Shown here: one piece after another, positions 3,916-61,401 of the stretch
Layout: the number at the start of each line of letters is the position of its first letter
Position numbering within the stretch: position 1 is the stretch's first letter
Assembly: GCF_041956535.1 (NCBI RefSeq)
Contig: NW_027192206.1
Coordinates: 551,504-615,503 of the forward strand
DNA length: 64,000 bases
Source: Calcarisporiella thermophila CBS 279.70
Lineage: Eukaryota; Fungi; Calcarisporiellomycota
Direction of reading: 5' to 3'
Position numbers and translations under genes: made by a program
Notes under the pieces: model-generated
What the model was told of the DNA's origin: nothing
What the model saw: only the letters and a program-made list of their open reading frames with translations
The model's database searches: none

Positions 3916-4882
3916 CTAATAGAAAGTCGTGGGCCGCTTGGCAACGAACACAGAGCTCTTGGCCTTGTCCCGGAGCTGGACGCGGTGCGGCAGCGGGAAG
4001 CGGAGCTTGGGCACCAACAGCTGCTTGATGTAGGGGCGGCGAACGTCGGCGTTCTTGACCTCAGCAACACGGATGATCTGGATGGAGCTGAAGCGGGCGC
4101 GGTGGCGGGCAGCCATGTCCTGGTAGCAGGCCTCGACGGCAGCAACGCGGGAGAGCTCGCGGAACTCCTTGTACATGTTGTGGGTACCGCTGCGGGAGTC
4201 GTAGCGGAGCCAGACACCGAAGTTCTTGACGGTGTCAGGGCGCTTCTCGAAGATCTGTTCACCCAGGGGGACTGAGTTAATTCCCGGCTCTCTACCCCCT
4301 CTCCTCGGAGACGATCCGATTCAAGGGGCAAATCAAAATCCTCAGAGCTTACCTCGTTCACTGAGACGATCTCGCCCGCAGCTTTCTTGACCTTGCGGAG
4401 CTTCCTCAGGAAGTACCAGAAACGGCTCTTGGCCACAACCTCATTAGGAGCAAACAAGCGCATGCGGTAGAGCTTGGGCACGGGCTCCGACTTGGAGGGG
4501 AGCTTACGGCCAACCACTTGATATTCGTGCAGCTACATGGGAAGAAAAAAAAAGAAGAATGGCGATTAATTAGGATAGATCGATCAACATCATGCTTCAT
4601 CCAGCCATCGCCCATGTTCCATCCATTTTGCCCATCCTACACCCCCCATCCCCGTCCATCCATTCCGTTGGATCAAAGGAGCAAAGGTCTGCACCTCGTG
4701 CCCTCCTTTGCCCGCATCCTACTGCCGCCCCCTCTTCCTCCATCCATCCATCCCCTCATCCAACCGAATACCCATCCATCACCCCACCCTCTTTGGCTCT
4801 CTAGCGGCTACTCCTCCCCACACTAGCCTCCCTCCCATCCCATTTCTATATCCTATCTCAGGTATATACTCACCCTGGCCAT
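3916..4882 (-). CDS. RPL20: 60S ribosomal protein eL20 (L20/L18a), 3 exons
   Basis: MAR|[37 protein letters not shown]..|[43 protein letters not shown]. Exons 4882-4874, 4532-4353, 4254-3916. Confidence 0.97.
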
Positions 4883-15233: not shown

Positions 15234-17571
15234 TCAAAAATAGCTACCATTGGATAGTTTGGCGCTCGTAATGAAATCGAACCCTTCGATGTCTGCAACC
15301 GATGCTACCTCAAAATTCACCTCCCTGGTATGGTGCCCGTCAGAGTAGATAAAGGTAGAGCACTCTTCTATATGTATATACTGTTCCTGCTCGAGTATTT
15401 CCGCATATGAGGCGGGTCGGAGTAGGAACACTATTCGGAGCTTGGTGAAATCGTCATCGATGTAGTGTTCGCAGAGCATGCATGCCTCGTATATATTCCA
15501 GGTTTTGAGCTCTTCTATGAATTTTTCGGGGGAGGTCATTTTGACTTGCAAAAGCACCAGCTCGTCAGACTGGGCACTGGGGCCACGGTGGAGAATCGCA
15601 TAATTAATCGCCTTATAAGTCTCAGTTGCGGGTATAAGAAGGTAATTCTTAGACCTCTGTTCAAGGGTATCAAATAGGTGATTAAAAAGTTTGGGATGGC
15701 GTGCGAACGGGTTGACTGAAGAAATATCTATAGTGTCCACACTGTCTTCTTCCAAGGAGTAAAGGTCTTTCTGAAATTAGATCGCTAAAATCGATATGCC
15801 CTTTAGTATGGATGAGGTTGGACTTGTCGTCTTGCTCCAACTTAACCGTGTCAAATTTGATACACCTAGAGGTTTTGGCTTTTTATAAAAGGAGCCATTC
15901 GACTTCCTGACAAAATCCAGGGCCCACCATACTACCATCAAATGTGGGCGATCCGAGTGATTTGAGAAGGTCATTGAAATGGCGGCCGTAGTAGGCTCGA
16001 ACCCCTTCTTTAAAGACCGGATTGAAAAACTTGATTTCAGCGTAGCAAGATGTAGGCGATAGTATCTCGTACATTTACTTCCGGTCGATTGTGTAAGAAC
16101 CAGCTTCAATACCAATATCCATGATCGCGGCTATTGCAGCTACCTTCACCTTATCTACATCAACCAACCCAAAATTTCCTTTCAAAAATTTTAAGTGGTT
16201 TTCTTCAATTTCTCCACGAGCACTAGTAAGGAAAGCTTTTGCACGAGCCTTAACCCTGCGGAGGCGAATGGATTCTGAGACTTGGCTCAAATATCCTCTT
16301 TTGGCCAATGAGATAAGATGCTCGCAGAGTCCAGAGAGCAAGTATGGGTAAAACAGGGTAATCTCTCGCATCACATCCAGCACTTGTTCAGTTGGAAATG
16401 CGGCACACTTGCTTGGAGTGGTGTCAATAACCCATGCGACATCGGCAAATCTCTTTTCGATGAAGACTTTAGCTTCGGTATCATTAAAAGGAGTCATAAA
16501 CTGGTATGGCTTGAAACCACTTATCCCATATGGGGGTGTAATTGCGTTGTTGCTAGATGCGCACAGAACCACCACGCGTCCAAACAGTCTAAGAACTGTC
16601 TGGTAGACTACAAAAGGGTACTCAACCTTGTCTTCCTTCAACTCTTCGAGGTTATCAATAATCCAGATTGGGATCAACTTCTCATCGGTGCATAGGTTGT
16701 TGAGTTTGTTAAGAAAGATACCAGTTTCTTCGTTTAGGTCGTATTTCCGATAGCTGTATGATACATCGTAGAACTCTTTGACAAGAGAATGTACTTCACT
16801 GTCATCTGGAAAAGCCATGATAATATCACGCAGAAGGAACCGAAACCTTTTGCCGTAGCTCTTAAGAGCATACCAAGTTTTACAATCATTGATATATATT
16901 ACTCGGTAGGTAGGCTCTGTTAGTCGAAGATAGGTGGCAATCTGGAGCAACACGTGGCTTTTGCCAACACCATGTGGACCATGGACATAGATTCCCTTGA
17001 GGTCACTAGGGCCAACGGCAAAATTAGTAGAAGTTGAAGCAGTACCACTCCCAGCAGTGGTTCGCTGACGGTACGCGGTTGAAAACGCCATAGCTAAAAG
17101 GGCTTCTTTTTCTAAAAACAAGCCAGAGTTTTCGAGTATAACTTGCCTACTATTCGCTATGTGTTTCGCACGTAAAATTATTTCATTAAGTATGGGTTCG
17201 GCCGCCTTAAAACGATACAGCGTCTCGTATAATGTGAGGGAATTGCCAATGACTGGCACCGATAGAAAATCGTTTGAAATTTCTTCATGGGCGCAGTTGA
17301 CAATTCTAGTAAATTTACATTCATGAAAATCAGTCGCTTTGGTCCTGGAAATAGCATCTTTGCGCATGCTTGAGGATAATATAACGTCGTCGATTTCTAA
17401 TCATTAAAAGCATAGAAGAAAATTGTACTAAATTAGTTAGGGTCGCCAATGTAGTATCGAGCGAGAGGAGGAGGAAATGTGGAGTTGGAAGATACCTTTA
17501 CTAAGAGCGTCGTATTCACTTGCGCTCGATTCAGTATCCTCATATGTTCTTTTCGATGGCACCCACGGCAT
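15234..17571 (-). pseudogene. Crinkler-like P-loop NTPase plus PD-(D/E)xK-type nuclease gene, disrupted
   Basis: Walker A GPHGVGKS, RVIYINDC, Walker B-like WIIDN, and C-terminal LLIPATETYKAINYAIL..LVLLQVKM. In-frame TAA at 16075-16077 and 15883-15885, plus a frameshift near 15780. Short first exon from ATG 17571 and an intron at about 17497-17397. Confidence 0.65.
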
Positions 17572-17879: not shown

Positions 17880-19056
17880 ATTTGTTGCCCGAAATCAGTA
17901 GACGGATGTCATCTATGGTTATTCATATTCCCAGGTCTAAGTCATACTCAACATCGGTAACAAGGAAATCAGCAGTTCGTCCCTAAAGACTCTCCGATAT
18001 TAGTTTTAATATCCATTACTTCACCGTAGCATTTCTACTTCGATACATAGCCCAATTCCAACAGCAACTTCTTGAACACCCAGACCCAAATTCTCCGCAA
18101 ATTGTTGTCGAATGAAACTATCCGTTGAGACGTTGTTTACTAGGATTCTTGCCGGCACGCTATTCATAATTGCATCGTTTCGGAATAAACTATGTTTTCT
18201 TGAATCACTCCGTCGTTTTTTTTTCCCAATTTTTTTCGATGATTTTCTCTTTATTCGTCTGACCTCTCTTGTCCGCTTTGCTTGAATCAGAGTTGTTTGT
18301 TGATATCGTGTCCTGTGCTGGCTGTGATCTTTGAGTTCTTTTCTTATTTGGGCAATTTTTGGCAATTTGATGTCTTTCGCCGCAATTGAAACACATACCG
18401 AACCGTAGGAACTATTGCTTTTGCTTCAAGTTCATTGTTCTTTACGAGAAACATTGTTGAGTTCCATTGTTGTCGTACTATTATCCTTGTCGATATTCCG
18501 GTTAATTCTTACATTACTGTCGGAATTTGTTGAAAATGTCATACCCCAGTTAACAGTTGTATCATTAGGAACCTCTAATTCAACTGCTTCTTAGAGGGTT
18601 TTGACAACCTTGTACTGACTTGTATTCTAACTCTGGACTTAAGGCCACTAATAAACATCGTCATCGTCTGCTTGTTGTCATAAGAATCCAACTAAACAAG
18701 GATGTTGCGGAATTGGAAGACGTAATCTTGAATGCTTGGCGAAGTGATGTAAGCTGATTACACAGGACATTTGATAATCAGCAGGTTCGGAAACCGCTAT
18801 AAGTTCATTGCCAAAATCTAGCCATATATTTGGTGTATCTGTGCCGAACTTATTTGATTGATACCACTGGTTTGAGGTATCCCTAAGTACGAAGCAACTA
18901 TAAAACCTTTCGTTCTTCCGGAATTCTCATTGCTTCAAATAGTGTATCTACTTGCCCAATCCACCTTTGCGCATTTTTTCCGCTTCGGCCATGAAATGGT
19001 GGCAAAGGAATTGAAATAAAGCCTTTTTTGAAGCTTTACAAGGTAGTTGAGGTCAT
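17880..19056 (-). mobile_element. Degenerate Ty3/gypsy gag-protease
   Basis: IPLPPFHGRSG..QRWIGQVDTLF gag N-terminus, zinc knuckle CFNCGERHQIAKNCP, decayed protease ARILVNNVSTDSFI and FLVTDVEYDLDLG. Many stops and frameshifts. Confidence 0.8.
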
Positions 19057-19177
19057 GTTTACAACGAGAGAAGTTATCTGCGACAGGAAAACTTCAAGAG
19101 ATTTTTGATTCACCGTATTTTTCCCACTTAATAACACAGAATAATAATAAATAATAATGTATTTTTTCTTGTTCATA

Positions 19178-19594
19178 GCTACCAAAATGTAGTGATCACA
19201 ATTGTAATAAGTACTGTAATAGTAGTATAATAGTACTTGAAAATGAGTTCGGTTCAATTTCGATACTTTCTTCATTTTACTGTAGTTTTCTAAATTCCTA
19301 ATTAATTGTTTGTATGAACTGTATTATAAGATCTTATCGAATTGGAATTAACTATTTATGGGATTTTTATAATCGAATTACTTTTAGGATTCTTTTAAGA
19401 ATCGAACTTTGTTTAATAAACACTAATATCATCCGAACCTTACTTTTGTTTATATCAACGACTCAATTCACAAGAACTATGATTTTTATTACATTTGAAG
19501 TTCGATTTAATTATTTACGACGAGAATAACCTTAAAAGGGCTTCATATAACAAGGATCAGAAATTATGTGCAAATAAACTATCCTATTGCTACA
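19178..19594 (-). mobile_element. Probable 5' LTR (19594-19188) with primer-binding site (19184-19178)
   Basis: On the minus strand the segment starts TGTAG at 19594 and ends CTACA at 19188 (5-bp inverted termini). TTT-TGGTAGC, an initiator-Met tRNA-type PBS, follows immediately, about 120 bp before the gag ATG. No second LTR in the window confirms the distal boundary. Confidence 0.6.
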
Positions 19595-19741: not shown

Positions 19742-20326
19742 TTACTCTTCCATCGAAATAACCCCGCGAGCAAGTAGAACACGTTTGATACGTTCTGTAA
19801 TATTTGTTCCAAGTCTCTTATCCAGCTCCTTGTATGTCTCGATCAGATACAGAGCTTCTTCTTCCGTTTCAACAAGAGATTCTGCACCCGGAAACGTGGT
19901 GGTGAGATAATTCTTATCTAGAGTACTGTATTTCTTCCACAGGTACGGATACACAGTCTCGTTTTTCTCCAGATAATCTTTGATTTGGACTCGGAAAAAT
20001 CGTTGGAGTCTGCGCGGGGTCAAATCATCTGGTGCTATTTTTGATTGCAAGCTCAAATCATCCTTAACGCCAAACTCTTTGTACACGGATTTGACGTCGA
20101 TTTTCTCGCCATTCATTTCAAACTCTCCAAATACTTTGTTACCGGAGCCGGTAATCGCAGTCTGGAGTGCACAGAACATCAGAATTTTCATCCCGTTCTT
20201 TGCTTTTATAGTTTCGTAGATTTCCTGATCGGAATACGAATCGGTGCTGATGGGCTTGAGGTCAGAATGGTCTGTAAGATTAACAAGCTCGGAAAGCCGT
20301 TGCTGGCTAAGATACCGTTCTGTCAT
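19742..20326 (-). CDS. Endogenous viral element: bunyavirus-like nucleocapsid (N) protein, intact 194 aa
   Basis: Intronless ORF with PDDLTPRRLQRFFR and YLTTTFPGAESLV. These match in order and approximate spacing the orthobunyavirus N motifs PDDGLTLHRLSG and YLSFFPGSEMFL (recalled, not searched). Preceded by TAGTAGTATACT and followed by an A-rich 3' UTR. Confidence 0.75.
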   Translation of the reverse strand: MTERYLSQQRLSELVNLTDHSDLKPISTDSYSDQEIYETIKAKNGMKILMFCALQTAITGSGNKVFGEFEMNGEKIDVKSVYKEFGVKDDLSLQSKIAPDDLTPRRLQRFFRVQIKDYLEKNETVYPYLWKKYSTLDKNYLTTTFPGAESLVETEEEALYLIETYKELDKRLGTNITERIKRVLLARGVISMEE

Positions 20327-21189
20327 TGTTTAGTATACTACTAACTCAATTTTATACTAATAGGTGCAATGTTGCTTGTTTATAAGACTCAATAAATATA
20401 GTAAATTGGTGAGGAGCAATATATCAAAATAAAGGATTTAATAGTCAAAGAAAATGATCTGATGATCTTATAATGTAATAGGATGGTTCATCAGCATAAT
20501 TTTGATTCTCATATTATGAACCCTGGCTATTATCTGGGAAACATTTGTAATATGTAACCAGACGGCTCACTTGCATTTTTCTCATGAATGAAGATAAGGT
20601 TTCTGTTTTTAAGCTTGGGACTGCTTAAAAATTATTTTCTTGTCTTTTGGTGAAGTATGGTCTGAGATTTTTCTTCATTTCTTATTTAAATCTACCTTAA
20701 CTTCTTTATCCTCATTGATATTTTATATTTATTAAGGTGAGTATCTCCTGTTTACTTCGTTATTGTTATGATATTAATAAAGACCAATCTCTTATTTTCA
20801 TTATTGCGTTTGACTACGATCTACAGCCCAATGAGTGTGGAACCATTCGCATAATTTAAGTTTGTCCGTGATTTACAGCCAAATGCAATGCAACAACACA
20901 GTAGCATATGGAAATGTGTTACGTTGTCTGATAAAGAATATAATGGACCAATAAAACATAGATCTCATTAGGGAGATGGAATATGGAGATCACTATGACT
21001 CGTGCGCATGACTAGTTATGAATGAATATCTCACACATTCGCCAACTCGTCAGACAAGTATATGGGACTAATCTAATGACTTTTTTTGTCAGTGAATGTC
21101 GAAATCCCACTATTCCGATGTGGTTTCTTATCTCTTAGCTTATGGATTATATATAATTGAGCTGATAGGAGAGTTTTGCATTGAGATGT

Positions 21190-21700
21190 CGAAGTTTCTA
21201 CATGGGTCTGATCACCCAAATGTAGCCTTATCTTTGAACAAGCTAGCAGAGCTCTATCGCCATCAAGGCAGGTGTTACCGGGGCTTTGAAATAGAGAGAA
21301 AGATTTATTACGATCTTAATTGTACAGTAAGTATCATCCTAAGTAATACCTACTAGAGGAAGGAAAGGTTTTGATGGTGGTTTTTAGGAAACTATTAATA
21401 AGTGATGGTGTATCGATTGCACTAAAAATGAGAGCTCAAGGATGGATCTTCGCAGAGTTATTGGCTCTCAAAAATTTTGCTATAATACTAGAGATGTATA
21501 TCCAAATAGTTTGGCTCAGGCTAATTTCTTAATTATTATTACTTAATCTCCGAATCTGTCTGATTTTTGGTGCATAAACCTCCCATATAGCCATCTCTTT
21601 GTGCAACCTAGCAATACTCTATACTCCACTGGGCAAATATGACAAAGCAGTACCATTTATTCAATAATTGCAGGAGATTTGGAAGAGTTTGGGACAGCAC
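21190..21700 (+). pseudogene. Decayed TPR repeats (kinesin-light-chain/NLR type), split by a dispersed repeat
   Basis: LHGSDHPNVALSLNKLAELYRHQG at about 21200-21270 and HIAISLCNLAILYTPLGKYDKAVP at about 21585-21655. Confidence 0.6.
21351..21590 (-). repeat. Dispersed AT-rich repeat, copy 1 (inverted copy at 61480-61711)
   Basis: TACTAGAGGAAGGAAAGGTTTTGATGG..GTGTATCGATTGCACTAAAAATGAGAGCTC.. aligns by eye with the reverse complement of 61480-61711. Confidence 0.8.
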
Positions 21701-22353
21701 TTTCGAGAATCATGCTATTCCGATCGCTGGATACTTAGGGATTTAGAAGACATACGGGCGGATTCATTGATTTTTCTACTGGCCCAGATTACGAGATGCC
21801 GCCAAGAAATACGTGACGAGCTGCGACGTGTACCAAAGAACTAAGACGAGCAACACTCTTCCAGCGGGACTCCTTCAGCCACTTGATACACCAACTCAGA
21901 AATGGCACCAGGTTTCCAAGAACTTAATCACGCAATTCCCTAAGACGAAGAATGGATTCGACGCAATTATGGTTTTCGTAGACCGACTGACAAAGATGGC
22001 GCATTTCGTTCCAACAACAACAGCTAATGCACCAATTATAGCCAAATTATTTTCGACACAGTATTCAGACTCCATGGCCTGCCACAAGCAATTGTTACAG
22101 ACCGAGATCCACGATTTATCAGCAATTTCTGGAAGGCCCTGCACGAATACTTAGGAACCAAACTTGCAATGTCAATAGCATATCACCCGGAAACCGATGG
22201 TCAAACAGAAAGAACCAACCGCACCCTAGAACAAATGCTGCGAGCATACGTTTCGTACCGACAAACTAATTGGGATGAATGTCTGACAGCCGCTGAGTTT
22301 GCCCACAATAACGCAAAGCAATCATCTACTAAAGTGAGTCCTTTTATCCTGAA
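21700..22353 (+). mobile_element. Ty3/gypsy integrase fragment (+ arm)
   Basis: SCDVYQRTK..GLLQPL..FDAIMVFVDRLTKMAHFVP..TDRDPRF..AYHPETDGQTERTNRTLEQMLR..AEFAHNN; frameshifted. Confidence 0.9.
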
Positions 22354-22685
22354 TTAGGTACAAAATGGCTCACTTTAGTAGATGATTGCTTTGCATTGTT
22401 ATGGGCAAACTCAGCGGCTGTCAGACATTCATCCCAATTGTTCTGTCGATAAGTCACGTACGCGCGCAGCATCTGTTCTAAAATCCTGTTTGTTCTTTTA
22501 GTCTGTCCGTCTGTTTCTGGGTGATAAGCGGTTGACATTGCTAGCTCCGTTCCTAAGTAATCGTGCAGGGCCTTCCAAAAGTTGCTGATAAATCGTGGAT
22601 CTCGGTCTGTAACAATTGCTTGTGGCATGCCATGGAGTCTGAATACTGTATCGAAAAATAACTTGGCTATAGTTGGTGCGTTGGA
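22354..22685 (-). mobile_element. Ty3/gypsy integrase fragment (- arm), inverted relative to the previous fragment
   Basis: MPQAIVTDRDPRFISNFW..AYHPETDGQTKRTNRILEQMLR..AEFAHNNAKQSSTKVS; the reverse complement aligns with 22025-22353. Confidence 0.9.
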
Positions 22686-23689
22686 GTTCGAGTGGATGAC
22701 GAATCAACGTCATTAAACTAATTGTTAACTGAGCCATAGCACGAATTTGTATTTGGTACGGTAATCGTAACGGTTCCTGAGCATGAGCTAGGATTTACCC
22801 ATTCCCCTAAGACCCCAGAGCACAAGAATTCTTGAGAGACCATCCTTACGGGAATTGCTTGACTGGACTCCTTCAATATTTGGACCATTAGTTTAGGACG
22901 AGGGACGAAATCTTGATTCCATTGAGGACATTGTAAAATTTTAATTCGCTCAAGTTAGCTTTGGAAGAACTGGTACCCTGGACTACATAAATACGTATGC
23001 GAGAATTCGTTAAGTAAAACCAAAGCTTGTCCTAGCAAAACATAATCTGGAGTTACCATCTTCATGATTTGATTGATTGTTATTCAGAACCATTGTGTCA
23101 GCACTAAAATCGCCATAGTCAGAAGTTGTTCCCGAATAAGTAATACAATCACTTTGATTTCCATGAATTGTATTGTTTTCAAGATTATTTTGATTACAAC
23201 GGGCTGTCATGTCTCCCTAAATAATAAAGCCAATGACTATCCGTAAGAATAGCATGTGAGCTATTTCGAAGAATTTATCGGCTAGCGTTTAACAACATAT
23301 GTAGAATAAGAATCAGGTAAGAAAAAAAGAAAGCATATTTTCCTCTAGAAAATGAATAAGCTGAATCCAATACCCGATTAATAGTGGTAAAATGAACCTG
23401 TGAACCCTTTTCGTCGACTGGCCCAATGTGCAGGCTTTAATCGACCTCATTCTCACACTATTCCATGCATTCATCTGGTTGGATCACGTCTCGTCGCAAA
23501 TTTAAGCTTCATTCCCAAATTGCTTTTTGGGTAATTTTGGGTTAGCTCTGAATAAATATCACTTACACATTCGACATTTCTTCGGTTTGGTCAAGAAATT
23601 TCGTCCAGGGTCATTCTTGTCGCGGGATCTCTCTATCCAGCTATATCGAACGGTTGCTTATCTCTTAGTCCAAAAAAAAATATGTTGGA

Positions 23690-24836
23690 GTTGAGCAGCT
23701 TGCACAGAAGTGCATCGAGATCTCCACAAGATTATATGGACCTAACCACCCACATACAGCCACTGCGTTGAATAATCCAGACATATTCTATGAGGAGCAA
23801 GGCAGGTACAACCGGGCTGAGTCACTCTACCAACAAGCATTAGACATATGGAAGAAGATGACTGGGTGCGACATACATACAGCTCAGTTTTTCAACAATC
23901 TGGCTGTAATCTTTCGTCAACAAGTACGACCAAGCCGAGTCACTCTATCAAAAAGCACTGGACATTTTGAAGAGAAAGTTTGGGCTCGACCACCCCCAAA
24001 CAGCCTCGATTATTGGCAACTTAGCAGAACTCTATCGTCATCACGGTAAATACAACCAAGCCGAGTCTCACTACCAAAGAGCTCTAGAGATTCAAAATAG
24101 GGAGCTTGGGCATTACCACCCAGATACAGCATCTACTTTGAATAATCTTGCTTCACTCTATGCCGAGCTGCATAAGGACGACCGAGCCGAGCCACTCTTT
24201 AAACAATCACTGGAAGTTCGGACGAAAGTGCTCGGAGCCGACCACCCAGATACGGCTGGAACTTTGGACAACCTAGCAATAATCTATCGAGAGCAGAGTA
24301 TGTACGACCAAGCTGAACAATTCCAACTACAATCCTTGGAGATTAGGAGGAGAGTGTTTGGAACTCGCCACCCAGATACGGCCAGATCTTTGAGCAATTT
24401 AGTCGAGCTATACCGGCAACAAGCCAGGTACAGCCAAGTTGAACCACTCTACTTGCAATCACTGGAGATTCGTAAGGAAGCGCTCGGGAAGTGCCGCCCA
24501 AATATAGCCTTAACTTTGAATAATCTAGCCATACTCTATTGTCATCAGCAGAAGCATGGTCAAGCCAAATCCCTTTTTCGACAATCCCTGGACATTAGGG
24601 GTAGGGTCCTTGGACAGGGCCATCCACACACCGCCTCAGCTTTGAGCAATCTCGCTGAGCTTTATTGTCAACAGGGCAAGTACGACTTAGCTGAGCCGCT
24701 GCTCAAACGATCCCTGGGCATAACGAAGAGAGTGCTTGGATCTTATCACCCACTTATAACTTCAACCTTGAATAAGCTTGCAACCCTCTATCGGCAACAG
24801 AGTAAGTATGACAAAGCCAGGTCACCTTTCCGATAA
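23690..24836 (+). pseudogene. TPR-repeat array (42-aa kinesin-light-chain-type repeats), typical of a fungal NLR C-terminus; N-terminus missing, frameshifted
   Basis: About 8 repeats of LG.DHPDTA.TLNNLA.LY..QGKY.QAEPL..QSLEIR..VLG; frameshift near 23925-23940. Confidence 0.8.
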
Positions 24837-45566: not shown

Positions 45567-46772
45567 TTAAGGAGACCGCCAAACCAAAGCATCTGCTGCG
45601 ACACACATTAATCTTTGTACTGGACCTGGGGAACCAACGGTTGGGCGCTTGATTTTCAGCATTCCTAAAGTTATCACAAAGCTAGCTACTCCTAGACAAG
45701 CTGTAACGGGTGATGGATCGGAAATAAAATTCAGCCCATGAAGCACACGCACGGCTCCTGCTAAAGCATTGACGGCCTCCAACAGCGCTGCAACTGCCCA
45801 GAAACCAGCCATCCGCGATGTATGCCGCACTTCATGTTTACTGCTAACCAGGTGCCCTATTAAGCCTTGAACGATCACTCCAAAAAAATCGCTTAAACGT
45901 TCGACCCACCAAGCATCACTTAATATCGATGTGACCAACGACAGAAAGAAGGCAGCTATTGCAATAATCTGGAACCCTCGGTTGGCGGCAACTGTAATTT
46001 TCCGTCCAGCCCACTCCTTTCCACGCATTACTGCGGCAACATTGGCACATGCAATAGTCCAATCCTGATTTCCAATATTGGCCGGGCATACGAAGATCTG
46101 ATAAGGTCCCTGCATCAATGGATCCAATCCGAGATTTATAAATTCTGAGGGAGGCCACACTATATCAAGCAACTTAATAGCTCTTAAACTGGATGCATCC
46201 ACGACAATAGTTGTAGGTGCTGACACTATTTTGTAAGCGAGCTCTTCTACAAGGCATGCAGCACGGCAAACTCGCCATGCCCGTCGAGCTCGGCAGCCAA
46301 GTGCCATGCTTACAGATATCAACGGTCCTGCTGCTAACTTTGCTGCTTGTCGTTTCGCTGTTTGCTGGTCTACCATTTGCTGATCTGAGAGCAATACATA
46401 GTCCGCGATGAACTGAGAAATTGCTGCGGCTATTGTTGCGGCACTTAAAAACTCTGGTTCTCCAGACAATGCTGCGCTTACTGCTGTGGTAGCCAATACA
46501 CTGGCATCAATGACAGCACCTCGTATTTGCAGCTGTTCACACGATAGCTGGCACTTATTTTCTTCCGCCGATGCAAATTTCGCTGTCAATATGATGAAGA
46601 TAGCGCATTTATACATAATCGTGAATGCCGACATCAAGACGCACCAGCCGCTATTAATGAGATAACCCAACTCAACCCATTGCATCCATGATATACCAAT
46701 GACCTGGTATGGTTCTACTGCGATCCAAAAGAGACTGTTAACCTTAGCTAACGTGCCATGTAAATGTAGCAA
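45567..46772 (-). CDS. Intronless multi-pass membrane protein of unknown function
   Basis: 401-codon open frame in AT-rich surroundings with several hydrophobic helices; start uncertain (first ATG near 46686). Confidence 0.55.
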   Translation of the reverse strand: MLHLHGTLAKVNSLFWIAVEPYQVIGISWMQWVELGYLINSGWCVLMSAFTIMYKCAIFIILTAKFASAEENKCQLSCEQLQIRGAVIDASVLATTAVSAALSGEPEFLSAATIAAAISQFIADYVLLSDQQMVDQQTAKRQAAKLAAGPLISVSMALGCRARRAWRVCRAACLVEELAYKIVSAPTTIVVDASSLRAIKLLDIVWPPSEFINLGLDPLMQGPYQIFVCPANIGNQDWTIACANVAAVMRGKEWAGRKITVAANRGFQIIAIAAFFLSLVTSILSDAWWVERLSDFFGVIVQGLIGHLVSSKHEVRHTSRMAGFWAVAALLEAVNALAGAVRVLHGLNFISDPSPVTACLGVASFVITLGMLKIKRPTVGSPGPVQRLMCVAADALVWRSP

Positions 46773-47762
46773 CAGGTCTCAATAGTTTTTCGGACTTTCA
46801 TAGTTAATATAACTAGGGCAGATGCGATTTGGGTAAAAGCATGAAAATATATAGACAAGAAGTAAAGTATATTCGAATAGTTCTAGGAAAAATGGTTATA
46901 TTCTCGTTGCACATTCTTGGCGTTTATATTTAAATTCAACATCTAAAAATAACGTTAAAATGGTATTAGAATTAAAACTGTACGCAGTAATTGTATTAAT
47001 GCTTGCATATTTCAACTTTTTATCCCTTCCTCGAATAGATGTTTAATAAACAATAGTGCATAGTATTTACAACTTTACTCTTGCTCTATCTGTTGCACTA
47101 CATGAAATCACAGATATGACATTTTTGACAAAAAGTGAACGCCTTAATATATTCCCTCGATTGAATATCTTTCGCACTCGAAAAATTAAATACCTTTTTT
47201 ATCATCATGAAAAAATGAAAGCTATATCAAAATGTTTATTAAAATGATCATTTTGCTTTCTATTGCTCTTCTTTCTGACATTTTATTGCCACACTAAATT
47301 AAGAAACTTCCTGGAGGGGTCACAGCTAGAATAGCCTCCATAAATAAGCTTTATTCACAAGAAAGAACTCGCTTACACTGTATATATACTACGACTTTGT
47401 GAATAAATATCGAAACTTGTATACACTTTAAGCTCCCAAGTCAACTGCGGGTCTCACATTCTTTCAGAGAGACAGGAAACGCTCCTTAGTCGAAACTTGA
47501 AAGCAGATCTGCATGAGAATATTCTTGACTCAAAAGAAAATTCAAGCAGGATTACAATGCCGAGTTGAGCTTAATGAAAGAAAAGCTGGTTTACTGGGGC
47601 GCTGAATTTGAAAAATGTGCATATTAAATATCACAGTTTTTTTGGATAATAAGAATATTTTTGTAAATTGGATGCTCTTTGTACATTTATTTGATATTTT
47701 TCTCTCTTCTCATTTATTAAAACAACTTAACCACGATTTGTGTTTTTTAATCCAAAATTAAA

Positions 47763-49778: not shown

Positions 49779-50966
49779 TCAACACGGACAGAGAGGCGTG
49801 CCACTAGGATCTACAATCACCTCGCATCCTGCTGTCAGTGCGCGCTCTATTCCACATGTCAAGCACTCGTGTTCATACATGTGATAGCATTTTCGTCGAA
49901 GATGTCCTGCGGCAATAAGAGCCTGAATGTGACCTACTGGATTGTTATGTGCCAACACCAACAAGGCTTTTGCTTTACTATATTCTAATATTAGACCTGG
50001 CCGACAGTCTTGCAGACCGTCTTCGACAAAAACTGGTGCTTCATTATGATGACAAGCTTTCCCAGCCAAAAAGCATAGTCGCATCACATCCTCAACTATC
50101 ATTGAGTCAGAGAAGGAAGCGCCAATACCAATCAGGAGGTTAACTTGAGGGGCTATTTCCAAAATATAGGCACACGTTCTGGTATGTTCCGAAGTCTGAT
50201 CCGAAATCCACAAGCCCTTCCCTGAACCAGGTATACTCAAAAATTTGAGTAGCTGCGAGGAGCTCTCTCCAATTATGTCGAGTTCTTTAAGTCCGCCTTC
50301 GAAAGTGACAATATACTCACTCAATAATGCCGAAGCGGCTACAGAGCGCCACCCAACGACCTTTTTATTTCCGGATGTCGGCGCACTCACTATTGCTTGG
50401 AACCATTGCTTTATACCTGCACCAAGCATCCACTGTAACTGAAGAGCATGCTGGGTTCGTGTTCGCATAGCCGCTTGAGGTGGTCGATAAACCATTATAA
50501 GTCCGAGGTTATTGAGCAACTCCATTAGCAATTTGCACGCTTTTGGGCGAAACACAGCACCAAGATCACTGGAAGTATAGATCTCCTTAAGCCATGGTTC
50601 AAATCCTTCCTTGAAGCGTGGTAGAAATTGCAATGCTCTCAGCATACTTTCCAAGGTTTTCGCCTGTCGCAACCCCTCCTGTTCACTGTCCTTGCTTGGG
50701 GGGTAAAAAGAGTTAAATATGATGCCAACACGAGATGGTTCGATATAATATTGATTGCTCCCAAAAGTATAAATTTGCATACGATCAGCTTTAGCGTAAG
50801 TTTTATCGTAGGAACTCTCTGGTTCATCCTGCTCAGGCTTAACTGGATTGGACATATTGATATTCAAAAATGGAATATGTGCAGAATACGAGGGCGGAGA
50901 AAGTGAGATTGTATCGTCTTGTAGCAGTGAGAATTGTACCTCAATTTTGCTGGCGTAGCTTTTCAA
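49779..50966 (-). CDS. Intronless protein of unknown function with a C-terminal HECLTC motif
   Basis: 395-codon open frame; likely start MSNPVKPEQ near 50855; no family recognised with confidence. Confidence 0.55.
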   Translation of the reverse strand: MKSYASKIEVQFSLLQDDTISLSPPSYSAHIPFLNINMSNPVKPEQDEPESSYDKTYAKADRMQIYTFGSNQYYIEPSRVGIIFNSFYPPSKDSEQEGLRQAKTLESMLRALQFLPRFKEGFEPWLKEIYTSSDLGAVFRPKACKLLMELLNNLGLIMVYRPPQAAMRTRTQHALQLQWMLGAGIKQWFQAIVSAPTSGNKKVVGWRSVAASALLSEYIVTFEGGLKELDIIGESSSQLLKFLSIPGSGKGLWISDQTSEHTRTCAYILEIAPQVNLLIGIGASFSDSMIVEDVMRLCFLAGKACHHNEAPVFVEDGLQDCRPGLILEYSKAKALLVLAHNNPVGHIQALIAAGHLRRKCYHMYEHECLTCGIERALTAGCEVIVDPSGTPLCPC

Positions 50967-51189
50967 AGTTTGAGAGGAGATTCCAAAACTGATCAGATAT
51001 ACTGAATTTAGAAATTCTCGTTGTTTCGCAATTGTTTCACGGAAAAATGGAAAGATGGATTTCGATATTTTATCTTCTCTTACATATAAAGAGCAATCAA
51101 ACAGCTTTGTTCAATTTATTTTCCATTCTCGCGGTTGGATGCTTTTAATTTCCCATTTATTAGAACACACCAATAAAGCGCTAACAATA

Positions 51190-58715: not shown

Positions 58716-61401
58716 ATGTTCAGCTTCAGCGACTCTGTAGCAAAACCCATCTCGATGAGTAGAGGGCGGCAGAAGCGCCTCCAGAGGGCCATGGTGCTAG
58801 CTCAGGGGAATAATACAGGTGGAGAGACTATGGTTAAGAACACGCCTGTGCCAGACACGTCGCTACCCAAAAATCTACACCTGCTGCAAGTCTGGACCAC
58901 GCGATCAGAGGGTGTGGACGGCCTTGTACTCAGGGCAGAGGTGGGTGCTGAATTGGGGATTGAGTCCCTGGGGAAGCTACTCGACAATGTTGCCCAAGGA
59001 AAATATGCCCTATGGAAGGCAGCCTCTCGATTGAAGCCATATGCGATTAAGGCATGGACTTCCAGCCAGGAAGCCCACCCTCCGAGCGAGAGCATCCCAC
59101 ACCGGGTTAAGCCGCCTCGAGTGGTCAGCTCACGACACGCGGCCAGCCTATTTGGGTGGTCAAACAANNNNNNNNNNNNNNNNNNNNNNNNNNNNNNNNN
59201 NNNNNNNNNNNNNNNNNNNNNNNNNNNNNNNNNNNNNNNNNNNNNNNNNNNNNNNNNNNNNNNNNNNNNNNNNNNNNNNNNNNNNNNNNNNNNNNNNNNN
59301 NNNNNNNNNNNNNNNNNNNNNNNNNNNNNNNNNNNNNNNNNNNNNNNNNNNNNNNNNNNNNNNNNNNNNNNNNNNNNNNNNNNNNNNNNNNNNNNNNNNN
59401 NNNNNNNNNNNNNNNNNNNNNNNNNNNNNNNNNNNNNNNNNNNNNNNNNNNNNNNNNNNNNNNNNNNNNNNNNNNNNNNNNNNNNNNNNNNNNNNNNNNN
59501 NNNNNNNNNNNNNNNNNNNNNNNNNNNNNNNNNNNNNNNNNNNNNNNNNNNNNNNNNNNNNNNNNNNNNNNNNNNNNNNNNNNNNNNNNNNNNNNNNNNN
59601 NNNNNNNNNNNNNNNNNNNNNNNNNNNNNNNNNNNNNNNNNNNNNNNNNNNNNNNNNNNNNNNNNNNNNNNNNNNNNNNNNNNNNNNNNNNNNNNNNNNN
59701 NNNNNNNNNNNNNNNNNNNNNNNNNNNNNNNNNNNNNNNNNNNNNNNNNNNNNNNNNNNNNNNNNNNNNNNNNNNNNNNNNNNNNNNNNNNNNNNNNNNN
59801 NNNNNNNNNNNNNNNNNNNNNNNNNNNNNNNNNNNNNNNNNNNNNNNNNNNNNNNNNNNNNNNNNNNNNNNNNNNNNNNNNNNNNNNNNNNNNNNNNNNN
59901 NNNNNNNNNNNNNNNNNNNNNNNNNNNNNNNNNNNNNNNNNNNNNNNNNNNNNNNNNNNNNNNNNNNNNNNNNNNNNNNNNNNNNNNNNNNNNNNNNNNN
60001 NNNNNNNNNNNNNNNNNNNNNNNNNNNNNNNNNNNNNNNNNNNNNNNNNNNNNNNNTATCCATAATGGCATGATGGCTGCAATGGCGCTACACGTGCACC
60101 TAGGGTGGAGTTGTGACCTGGGAGAGTATTTCATAATGGGTACTAGTTTGCCGCGACATGCCTCAGTAGGATGGGGAAATGCGTATCATCTGGTCAGATG
60201 GGCGTGCAAGACTGGAGCTGCAATGATGGCCAGTGAAAGGAGGATCCAAGCTGGTCCCGACGGAGATGGGTTTGTTGATCATCTGATTCATGAAGCTGCT
60301 GTCTTGTACACAACATTAGACGAAGAGTTGCGGCCGATCGCTCGCACGTGGTACAACGGAATGTGTTCAGCAATAACGGCCCTGGCTGGATTGCAAGGGC
60401 GATGTATCAGAGTAGAAGGCGGGTACAGGAGCTTCGTTAGGACCGTATTAAGCCTCGAGCCAGAGATTCGGTCTGGGGGACATGCCCACTGTCTCCATTG
60501 TGAGGCCCTAGTCTGTCGGAAGCGGGCGGCCAACCGTCTGCGGAGGAAACTTGAGTACGCAGTGCAGCAGGGCGGATTACTTCTTTGCGGGACAGACACC
60601 GAATTGGCACTCCTCGTGGCATGGCCAAACAACCCTGCGGGCCTCCTGCGTGCCATTGGTGCTGCGCGGGGGACTAATAACACTTTTATAGATGTGCAGG
60701 ATCCTACTCTATACGGTCGCACTCCTGCTTATGGATCTAGGCCTATCATACCCTTGTGGGTCGACGGCAACGCTCGCTCATTGGCGATATACTACGGCCG
60801 TCTGAAATGGAACGGTGTATTCTGCCGGCTGGACATTCTGGTGCAGAGCAATCCAGTCATACAGGGGGAAGCTCCCCTCGCCAGAACGTGGAAAGCCAAG
60901 ACGGTTAGGTCACTGATATCCTTGTGGCGTATGCGGGGAGACGATGTCTTCGGGGTTGGGTTCCCCAAAGCCAGTTGTTGGCCATCCCACAGTCGGCGTC
61001 TTGAGGCTGTCCGGTTGCCCATGCAGCCATTCCAGCAGAGAGATGACGGCGAAGCCTCCGTGGCCCTCCTGAGGTCAGCATCTAATGGAGAGCTTGGGGG
61101 TGGGTGGTCATCATGGGAGTTCCTCTCCAGAAATACACAAGACATAGTCAGAATCTATGCCAGGGCCCAATAGCTGCTGCCTGCCGCTAGACTCTCTCAT
61201 GTCGTGCGGGGACAATGCGGCACGTCCGATGCTGCCGCAGTACTGTACTGCCATGCAAATGCTCTTGCACACTTAATTGTCACTGTTGCATGCTCTTACG
61301 GACACTCTACAGCTCTATTTGGTAGGACGAATGACGCTGCGCTCTATATTGGATTGGCCAGCTTGGCCGAGGGTCGGTTCCACTTCTTGGTGGAGTTATA
61401 A
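58716..61401 (+). pseudogene. Large intronless gene of unknown function spanning the assembly gap, with an in-frame TAG at 61171-61173
   Basis: Open frame 58716-59167 before the gap and 60057-61170 after it; the same frame resumes past the TAG to 61401. Continuity across the gap is assumed. Confidence 0.5.
59168..60056. other. Assembly gap (N run)
   Basis: 889 N characters. Confidence 1.

Follow-up and report, generated by a model that had tools for sequence, protein, structure and literature searches.

An intact gene of RNA-virus type in a fungal chromosome raises the question of which protein it encodes, from which virus it came, and whether its host has kept it, since bunya-type negative-strand RNA viruses have no DNA stage. 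A preliminary description of a 64,000-nucleotide stretch of Calcarisporiella thermophila DNA, hereafter referred to as the window, placed such a gene at positions 19742–20326. Its account of an uninterrupted, intronless open reading frame (ORF) of 194 amino acids carrying the motifs PDDLTPRRL (residues 99–107) and YLTTTFPGAE (residues 140–149) was borne out, and the minus strand can now be added. The frame is intact, an intronless reading suffices, and nothing else in the 64-kb window matches the family profile. The ORF is located deep inside a 737-kb contig, in a low-GC island of decayed elements flanked on both sides by ordinary fungal genes. In the assembly it thus occupies host chromosomal sequence between host genes, as an endogenous element does. 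An eL20 exon at 3916–4254 has its best matches in C. thermophila proteins, at 97%, and 110 of its 110 residues match one paralogue. The features of the island are as follows.

15234–17367, minus strand (read from 17367 to 15234): P-loop NTPase-like gene, open over 430 aa and then interrupted by two in-frame stops and a frameshift
About 17900–19100, minus strand: LTR-retrotransposon gag/protease-like remnant in fragmented frames (RVP_2 E 0.008, which misses its cutoff; zf-CCHC E 0.49)
19221–19229, plus strand, and 20334–20342, minus strand: inverted 9–10-nt pair AGTAGTATA, bracketing the ORF
19742–20326, minus strand: intact ORF with a predicted nucleocapsid fold (P0001), 194 aa, ATG to stop, homologue of the RmPhV1 RNA3 protein
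21096–24836, plus strand: fragmented TPR-repeat genes
21700–22703: retrotransposon integrase remnants (Integrase_H2C2 E 2e-12; rve weak)
22050–22345 and 22362–22657: arms of a 296-nt inverted duplication within the integrase remnants

The preliminary description had also called the neighboring elements broken, and the NTPase-like, gag/protease-like, integrase and TPR remnants are indeed all fragmented. The gag/protease-like remnant, which we take to be gag partly from the general features of such proteins, begins on the ORF's own strand, approximately 0.65 kb downstream, and its protease call is weak (E 0.008). Around the ORF, the family terminal motif was absent and no remnant of a viral terminus or untranslated region (UTR) was found; blastn comparison of the ORF flanks with the fetched virus-like segments gave no match, and an Rfam search of the window from 17 to 23 kb returned nothing. 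The inverted pair AGTAGTATA was considered as a pair of segment termini and rejected. It is unlike the family terminus, some inverted 10-mer occurred in 7–57% of flank shuffles, and its two occurrences in the window, where 0.24 would be expected, concern a motif chosen after it had been seen. Elsewhere in the window, three long intronless ORFs lack a Pfam match (45567–46778, minus strand; 49779–51110, minus strand; 60130–61173, plus strand), the first two of them in a second transposon-rich island; all three could be further foreign insertions. An assembly gap of approximately 0.9 kb of N is present at about 59160–60070, 39 kb from the ORF.

Homologue searching with the window protein identified 81 homologues among 191 candidates, and an exhaustive search yielded 205 representatives at E ≤ 0.001; the ORF is therefore not a chance frame. 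Its virus-encoded counterpart is the RNA3 protein of RmPhV1, with 60% identity over 97% query coverage (E 1.5e-68). According to the available parts of its report, RmPhV1 has a minus-strand genome in three segments and is sister to Phasmaviridae, its polymerase grouping near that family; the same parts give the RNA3 protein no conserved domain and no function, mention BLAST matches in Streptomyces and Mortierella, and suggest that the virus took the RNA3 gene from its host (PMC11351042). A phasma-like fungal clade has been proposed as a new family from the polymerase alone, as far as the accessible text of that study goes (PMC10470027). The RNA3 protein and the window protein share their core motifs and a Mucoromycota host, whereas the window copy sits in a chromosome, is 20 residues shorter and has host-like codons. 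The two motifs had previously been read as the core of peribunyavirus N proteins. This reading is not confirmed: sequence searches of Pfam and of the PDB turned up nothing that ties them to peribunyaviral N, and the region that holds them is instead the conserved core of the RmPhV1 RNA3-type family. Across 121 sequences of this family, conservation reaches 99% at R106, 99% at R109, 100% at K132 and 100% at E149, and the window ORF retains 14 of 14 near-invariant residues. The earlier suggestion of a tulasvirid-like or leishbuvirus-like donor is not supported; the donor lineage is the clade of phasma-like viruses from Mucoromycota to which RmPhV1 belongs.

Metagenome searches provided 29 loci, of which 26 are real matches on contigs of 1.0–1.7 kb; the three others (L028–L030, 25-residue matches at E ~1e-4) were excluded from all counts, and one partial locus (L027) was excluded from the GC tables. 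Complementary ends of at least 10 nt (10–24 nt) were detected in 14 of the 26 contigs and not in the remaining 12, while internal controls never reached this length, and the complement of the conserved RmPhV1 terminus is found on 3 of the 26. Contigs of approximately 1 kb whose ends are complementary, together with the RmPhV1 terminus on some of them, indicate that the relatives have the anatomy of a segmented minus-strand virus and not that of a flexuous plus-strand virus. None of 67 candidates in IMG/VR was a relative of the window protein, and a search of a phage collection found none. The nearest relatives, P0002 and P0005, have in common a 70-residue acidic C-terminal tail that is 49% identical between them; the tail is missing from the window and Streptomyces copies, and no remnant of it was found downstream of the window ORF stop. 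One further locus (L003:289–876) and its cluster P0052 lack complementary ends, show a GC3 of 0.48 and occur on cluster contigs of up to 16 kb; they likely represent another cellular lineage.

The function of the family was approached through its fold. An AlphaFold model of the window protein, built on a 62-sequence alignment, reached a pLDDT of 90 and displays the helical two-lobe nucleocapsid (N) fold with an N-terminal arm, at moderate scores. The preliminary description had proposed structure prediction with Foldseek as a check, and all 24 PDB matches listed are bunyaviral N proteins, led by phleboviruses (E 0.015, TM ~0.5), with orthobunyavirus N from rank 33 on. In BFVD, the best match is the Penicillium discovirus N (E 0.003); no Foldseek match fell at E ≤ 0.001 in either collection (best 0.015 in PDB and 0.003 in BFVD). 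A Foldseek-independent search of 48,161 chains returned 13 at Z ≥ 5, all of them viral RNA-coating proteins, namely phenuiviral, hantaviral or orthobunyaviral N or flexuous-virus coat proteins. Cellular proteins account for 0 of the 13, and the cellular or transposon matches named beforehand as the contrary outcome were not among them. Among individual proteins, the N of SFTSV scored Z 8.9 over 179 residues (rmsd 5.8), that of RVFV Z 8.0, hantavirus N Z 6.5–7.4 and La Crosse N Z 5.3. Potyvirus and potexvirus coat proteins (Z 7.6–8.6) tie with phlebovirus N on Z and span approximately 120–150 residues; phlebovirus N aligns over 170–179 residues, N-terminal arm included, whereas potyvirus coat proteins miss the arm. 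Because three fold searches converge on one superfamily, though with moderate scores, the window protein is predicted to be an N protein, and as judged from the model it very probably is a viral one. Conservation of R106, R109, R112 and K132 is consistent with RNA encapsidation as an oligomer.

Within the bunyaviral N proteins, the model points to a phenuivirid/discovirid type rather than a peribunyavirid one, with the proviso that fold rank of N proteins is not phylogeny. Phenuiviral N proteins (Toscana, SFTSV and RVFV) provide the best fold matches, at Z 8–9.2, in alignments that take in the arm and extend to as many as 179 residues, and the discovirus N heads the BFVD list; the window protein differs from both in sharing only 9–15% identity, in being ~50 residues shorter and in lacking a sequence-profile match to them. 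Orthobunyavirus (Peribunyaviridae) N has the same broad fold at Z 5.3–5.9 and is outranked by the N proteins of phleboviruses and hantaviruses as well as by flexuous-virus coat proteins; with its place well under phlebovirus N and no sequence match, the earlier peribunyavirus-type label is not supported. Phenuivirid and discovirid families presumably belong to a different order from Phasmaviridae. No N family was identified when Pfam and the PDB were searched by sequence, whether with the protein itself, with two alignments or with the motif region. In Pfam, an orthobunyavirus N family appeared neither at E ≤ 1 for the protein and 62 relatives nor at E ≤ 0.05 when 121 relatives were searched, and the PDB sequence search gave no match at E ≤ 10. 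A single family member matched Tospo_nucleocap at E 0.049, which was not counted.

To place the gene, two trees were compared: a quick tree of 120 rows and a careful tree of 56 of those 120, with near-duplicates and distant proteins left out. Approximately unbiased (AU) tests used the LG+G4 model on groups named after the quick tree had been seen. Cellular copies occupy separate places, in Mortierellaceae, in Linnemannia, in Cunninghamella, and in a set comprising the window gene with Halteromyces and Streptomyces copies. In both trees they are nested, the window gene included, within exogenous virus diversity, and monophyly was rejected for all cellular copies (p-AU 1e-55) and for the fungal copies (4e-44). 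Since cellular copies are scattered in viral diversity and their monophyly is rejected, the gene passed from virus to cell several times. As read from these trees, the direction of transfer is from virus to cell, the reverse of that suggested in the accessible part of the RmPhV1 report (PMC11351042).

The sister of the window gene is P0002 (74% identity, support 94/92), which with its cluster mate is represented by 12 contigs, all of 1.5 kb or less. Among named relatives, those nearest to the window protein are Halteromyces copy b (71%) and the Streptomyces proteins (59–67%), ahead of RmPhV1. The window gene groups with the Halteromyces and Streptomyces copies in both trees, with weak support (82/38 and 90/81), and this grouping also takes in P0002 and P0005 from short contigs. 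A Conidiobolus homologue is more distant and lies outside both trees. The Mortierellaceae clade (P0033, P0038, P0045, P0071, P0073, P0090, P0091 and P0114) is distributed over Mortierella, Podila and Gryganskiella; its copies often form adjacent locus-tag pairs across genera and likely reflect an old domestication with tandem duplication. One further protein, P0028 of M. claussenii, has an N-terminal extension resembling a signal peptide.

The gene was found in nine named Streptomyces strains, including complete replicons of 7.8–9.0 Mb and a 2.8-Mb linear plasmid. Two of these copies were examined in their surroundings.

L001:8001–8597: Streptomyces copy, GC3 0.82, near secreted ALF-repeat/AbfB and ricin-lectin genes and an apparent integrase remnant
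L031:9995–10594: Streptomyces copy on the 2.8-Mb plasmid, GC3 0.87, near GntR, AraC-like and PhyH genes

Both stand in genuine Streptomyces DNA with unrelated neighbors, and only ~710 nt around the ORF are common to the two. The pair is codon-adapted, with a dN/dS of 0.25 at a dS of 0.24. The full gene occurred only in the center genome among 401 genomes of the genus, which contained one 39-residue fragment besides, so the gene is rare in Streptomyces; among 201 relatives and 401 family genomes it was likewise found in the center genome only. The fragment, a C-terminal piece at L033:415–531 of another Streptomyces genome (G288), suggests decay of a further copy. In Halteromyces, copy a is 96% identical to an S. 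natalensis protein (P0012) and falls inside the Streptomyces clade (100/100, 99/94 and 99/89), and Streptomyces-only monophyly was rejected (p 0.008); contamination as well as either direction of transfer may explain this copy. The two Halteromyces copies (P0008 and P0048) lie three locus tags apart and come from different sub-lineages, and P0012 carries Cys at the near-invariant R109. Taken together, we lean slightly toward a history in which the N gene was repeatedly domesticated in early-diverging fungi, crossed into Streptomyces, where it became codon-adapted and subject to purifying selection, and was re-exchanged with Halteromyces, making it a mobile virus-derived RNA-binding family of soil fungi and bacteria.

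Whether the window gene is recent or has been kept by selection was left as an alternative in the preliminary description; fourfold-site GC now leans to selection. GC at the 83 fourfold sites is 0.49 and GC3 is 0.47, compared with a median fourfold GC of 0.15 (range 0.10–0.30) in the 14 segments that have complementary ends. The GC3 of the window ORF lies 0.19 above the GC of its flanks, a difference of at most 0.07 in those 14 segments, and other island genes have a GC3 of 0.42–0.49 and host housekeeping genes one of 0.52–0.88. Under a rough neutral model with an assumed indel rate, the probability that an unselected ORF is still intact is 0.58 at 1% divergence, 0.06 at 5% and 0.004 at 10%; for the window gene, dN/dS is saturated in every comparison with a relative. 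Host-like synonymous sites, the kept core, the neutral model and the lack of a viral terminus or UTR together favor long cellular residence under selection, so that a long stay of the window gene under purifying selection is fairly probable on these sequence comparisons. Its codon shift may predate the Calcarisporiella host.

Our preferred reading, to which we assign a probability of roughly one in two, is that the ORF is a chromosomal N gene from the phasma-like lineage of RmPhV1, reverse transcribed by a retrotransposon and selected as an RNA-binding decoy against related viruses. Homology, the bunyaviral N fold and the fungal flanks uphold the original proposal of a negative-strand mycovirus gene in a fungal chromosome. 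Judging by the neighboring elements, a retrotransposon reverse transcriptase most likely copied viral N mRNA, and the cDNA would have landed in an element-rich island of the chromosome; selection likely retains the copy as an antiviral decoy. N supplied by the host would be incorporated into polymers of the viral N or would coat the viral RNA, thereby stalling the viral polymerase and blocking replication of related viruses, a mechanism we advance tentatively and by analogy. Virus-derived restriction factors include endogenous bornavirus-like N, Fv1/Fv4 and yeast totivirus capsid genes, in which, as here, a viral structural gene is kept intact by the host in a form that would permit dominant-negative interference. 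Precedent for retention within the family itself is provided by the paired Mortierellaceae copies across genera and by the dN/dS of 0.25 of the Streptomyces pair.

The ORF might instead be a neutral fossil of recent date, left by a viral N mRNA newly inserted into a transposon-rich island and as yet undecayed. Such an insertion would be intact too: intactness is expected below ~1–3% divergence, the window holds a single copy in a decayed island, and P0002 with its cluster mate resembles a discrete viral segment in being confined to short contigs. This reading is rather unlikely in view of a fourfold GC above that of all 14 virus-like segments, the missing family terminus and unmatched flanks, and a nearest relative only 74% identical. 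An improbable variant holds that the viral gene reached the fungus second-hand, from another fungus or from Streptomyces, as part of a cell-borne lineage. Halteromyces copy b and some Streptomyces proteins are indeed closer to the window protein than the 59% of RmPhV1, they group with it in both trees, and the position of Halteromyces copy a within the Streptomyces clade points to cross-kingdom movement in the family; the grouping is nevertheless weak and contains the short-contig P0002 and P0005, and the GC3 of the window gene is far from the 0.82–0.87 of Streptomyces.

Capture of a cellular gene of unknown function by a virus, as put forward in the available part of the RmPhV1 report, can draw on the abundance of cellular homologues among zygomycete fungi and in Streptomyces and on the absence of a conserved domain noted there (PMC11351042). 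We regard it as very improbable, given the viral N fold with no cellular protein at Z ≥ 5, the polyphyly of cellular copies inside segment-borne diversity, their patchy distribution and the intronless window copy. That the assembly joined viral sequence onto a fungal contig is scarcely credible, with the ORF deep in its long contig between fungal genes, its codon use unlike that of viral segments, and the established lack of a DNA stage in such viruses.

Endogenous viral elements of fungi are already known. Curvulavirus-like elements derived from RNA-dependent RNA polymerase (RdRp) have been described in Mortierellaceae genomes and, like the window gene, place a non-retroviral RNA virus gene in Mucoromycota DNA; in the part of that study available, bacterial-labelled RdRp hits were judged contamination or mislabelling (PMC12548735). 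The present family differs in being a minus-strand N gene with several independent captures and bona fide Streptomyces copies. A literature search covering few subscription journals found no paper that names the RNA3-type protein as N or its cell copies as endogenous. To these the present analysis adds the predicted identity of the protein as N, a direction of transfer opposite to the published one, capture on several occasions, and bacterial copies that appear to be under selection.

For the viruses, this work supplies what is likely the missing nucleocapsid of a clade of fungal bunya-like viruses, of family rank, for which mostly polymerase segments have been known, and the profile of 205 representatives can be used to find small segments of phasma-like fungal viruses. 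If true, a selected, codon-adapted structural gene of a eukaryotic RNA virus in bacterial chromosomes would be very unusual, because bacterial-labelled RNA-virus hits normally turn out to be contamination (PMC12548735). For the fungi, retention of the same viral gene, repeatedly and in unrelated lineages, makes nucleocapsid-derived antiviral immunity a testable proposition.
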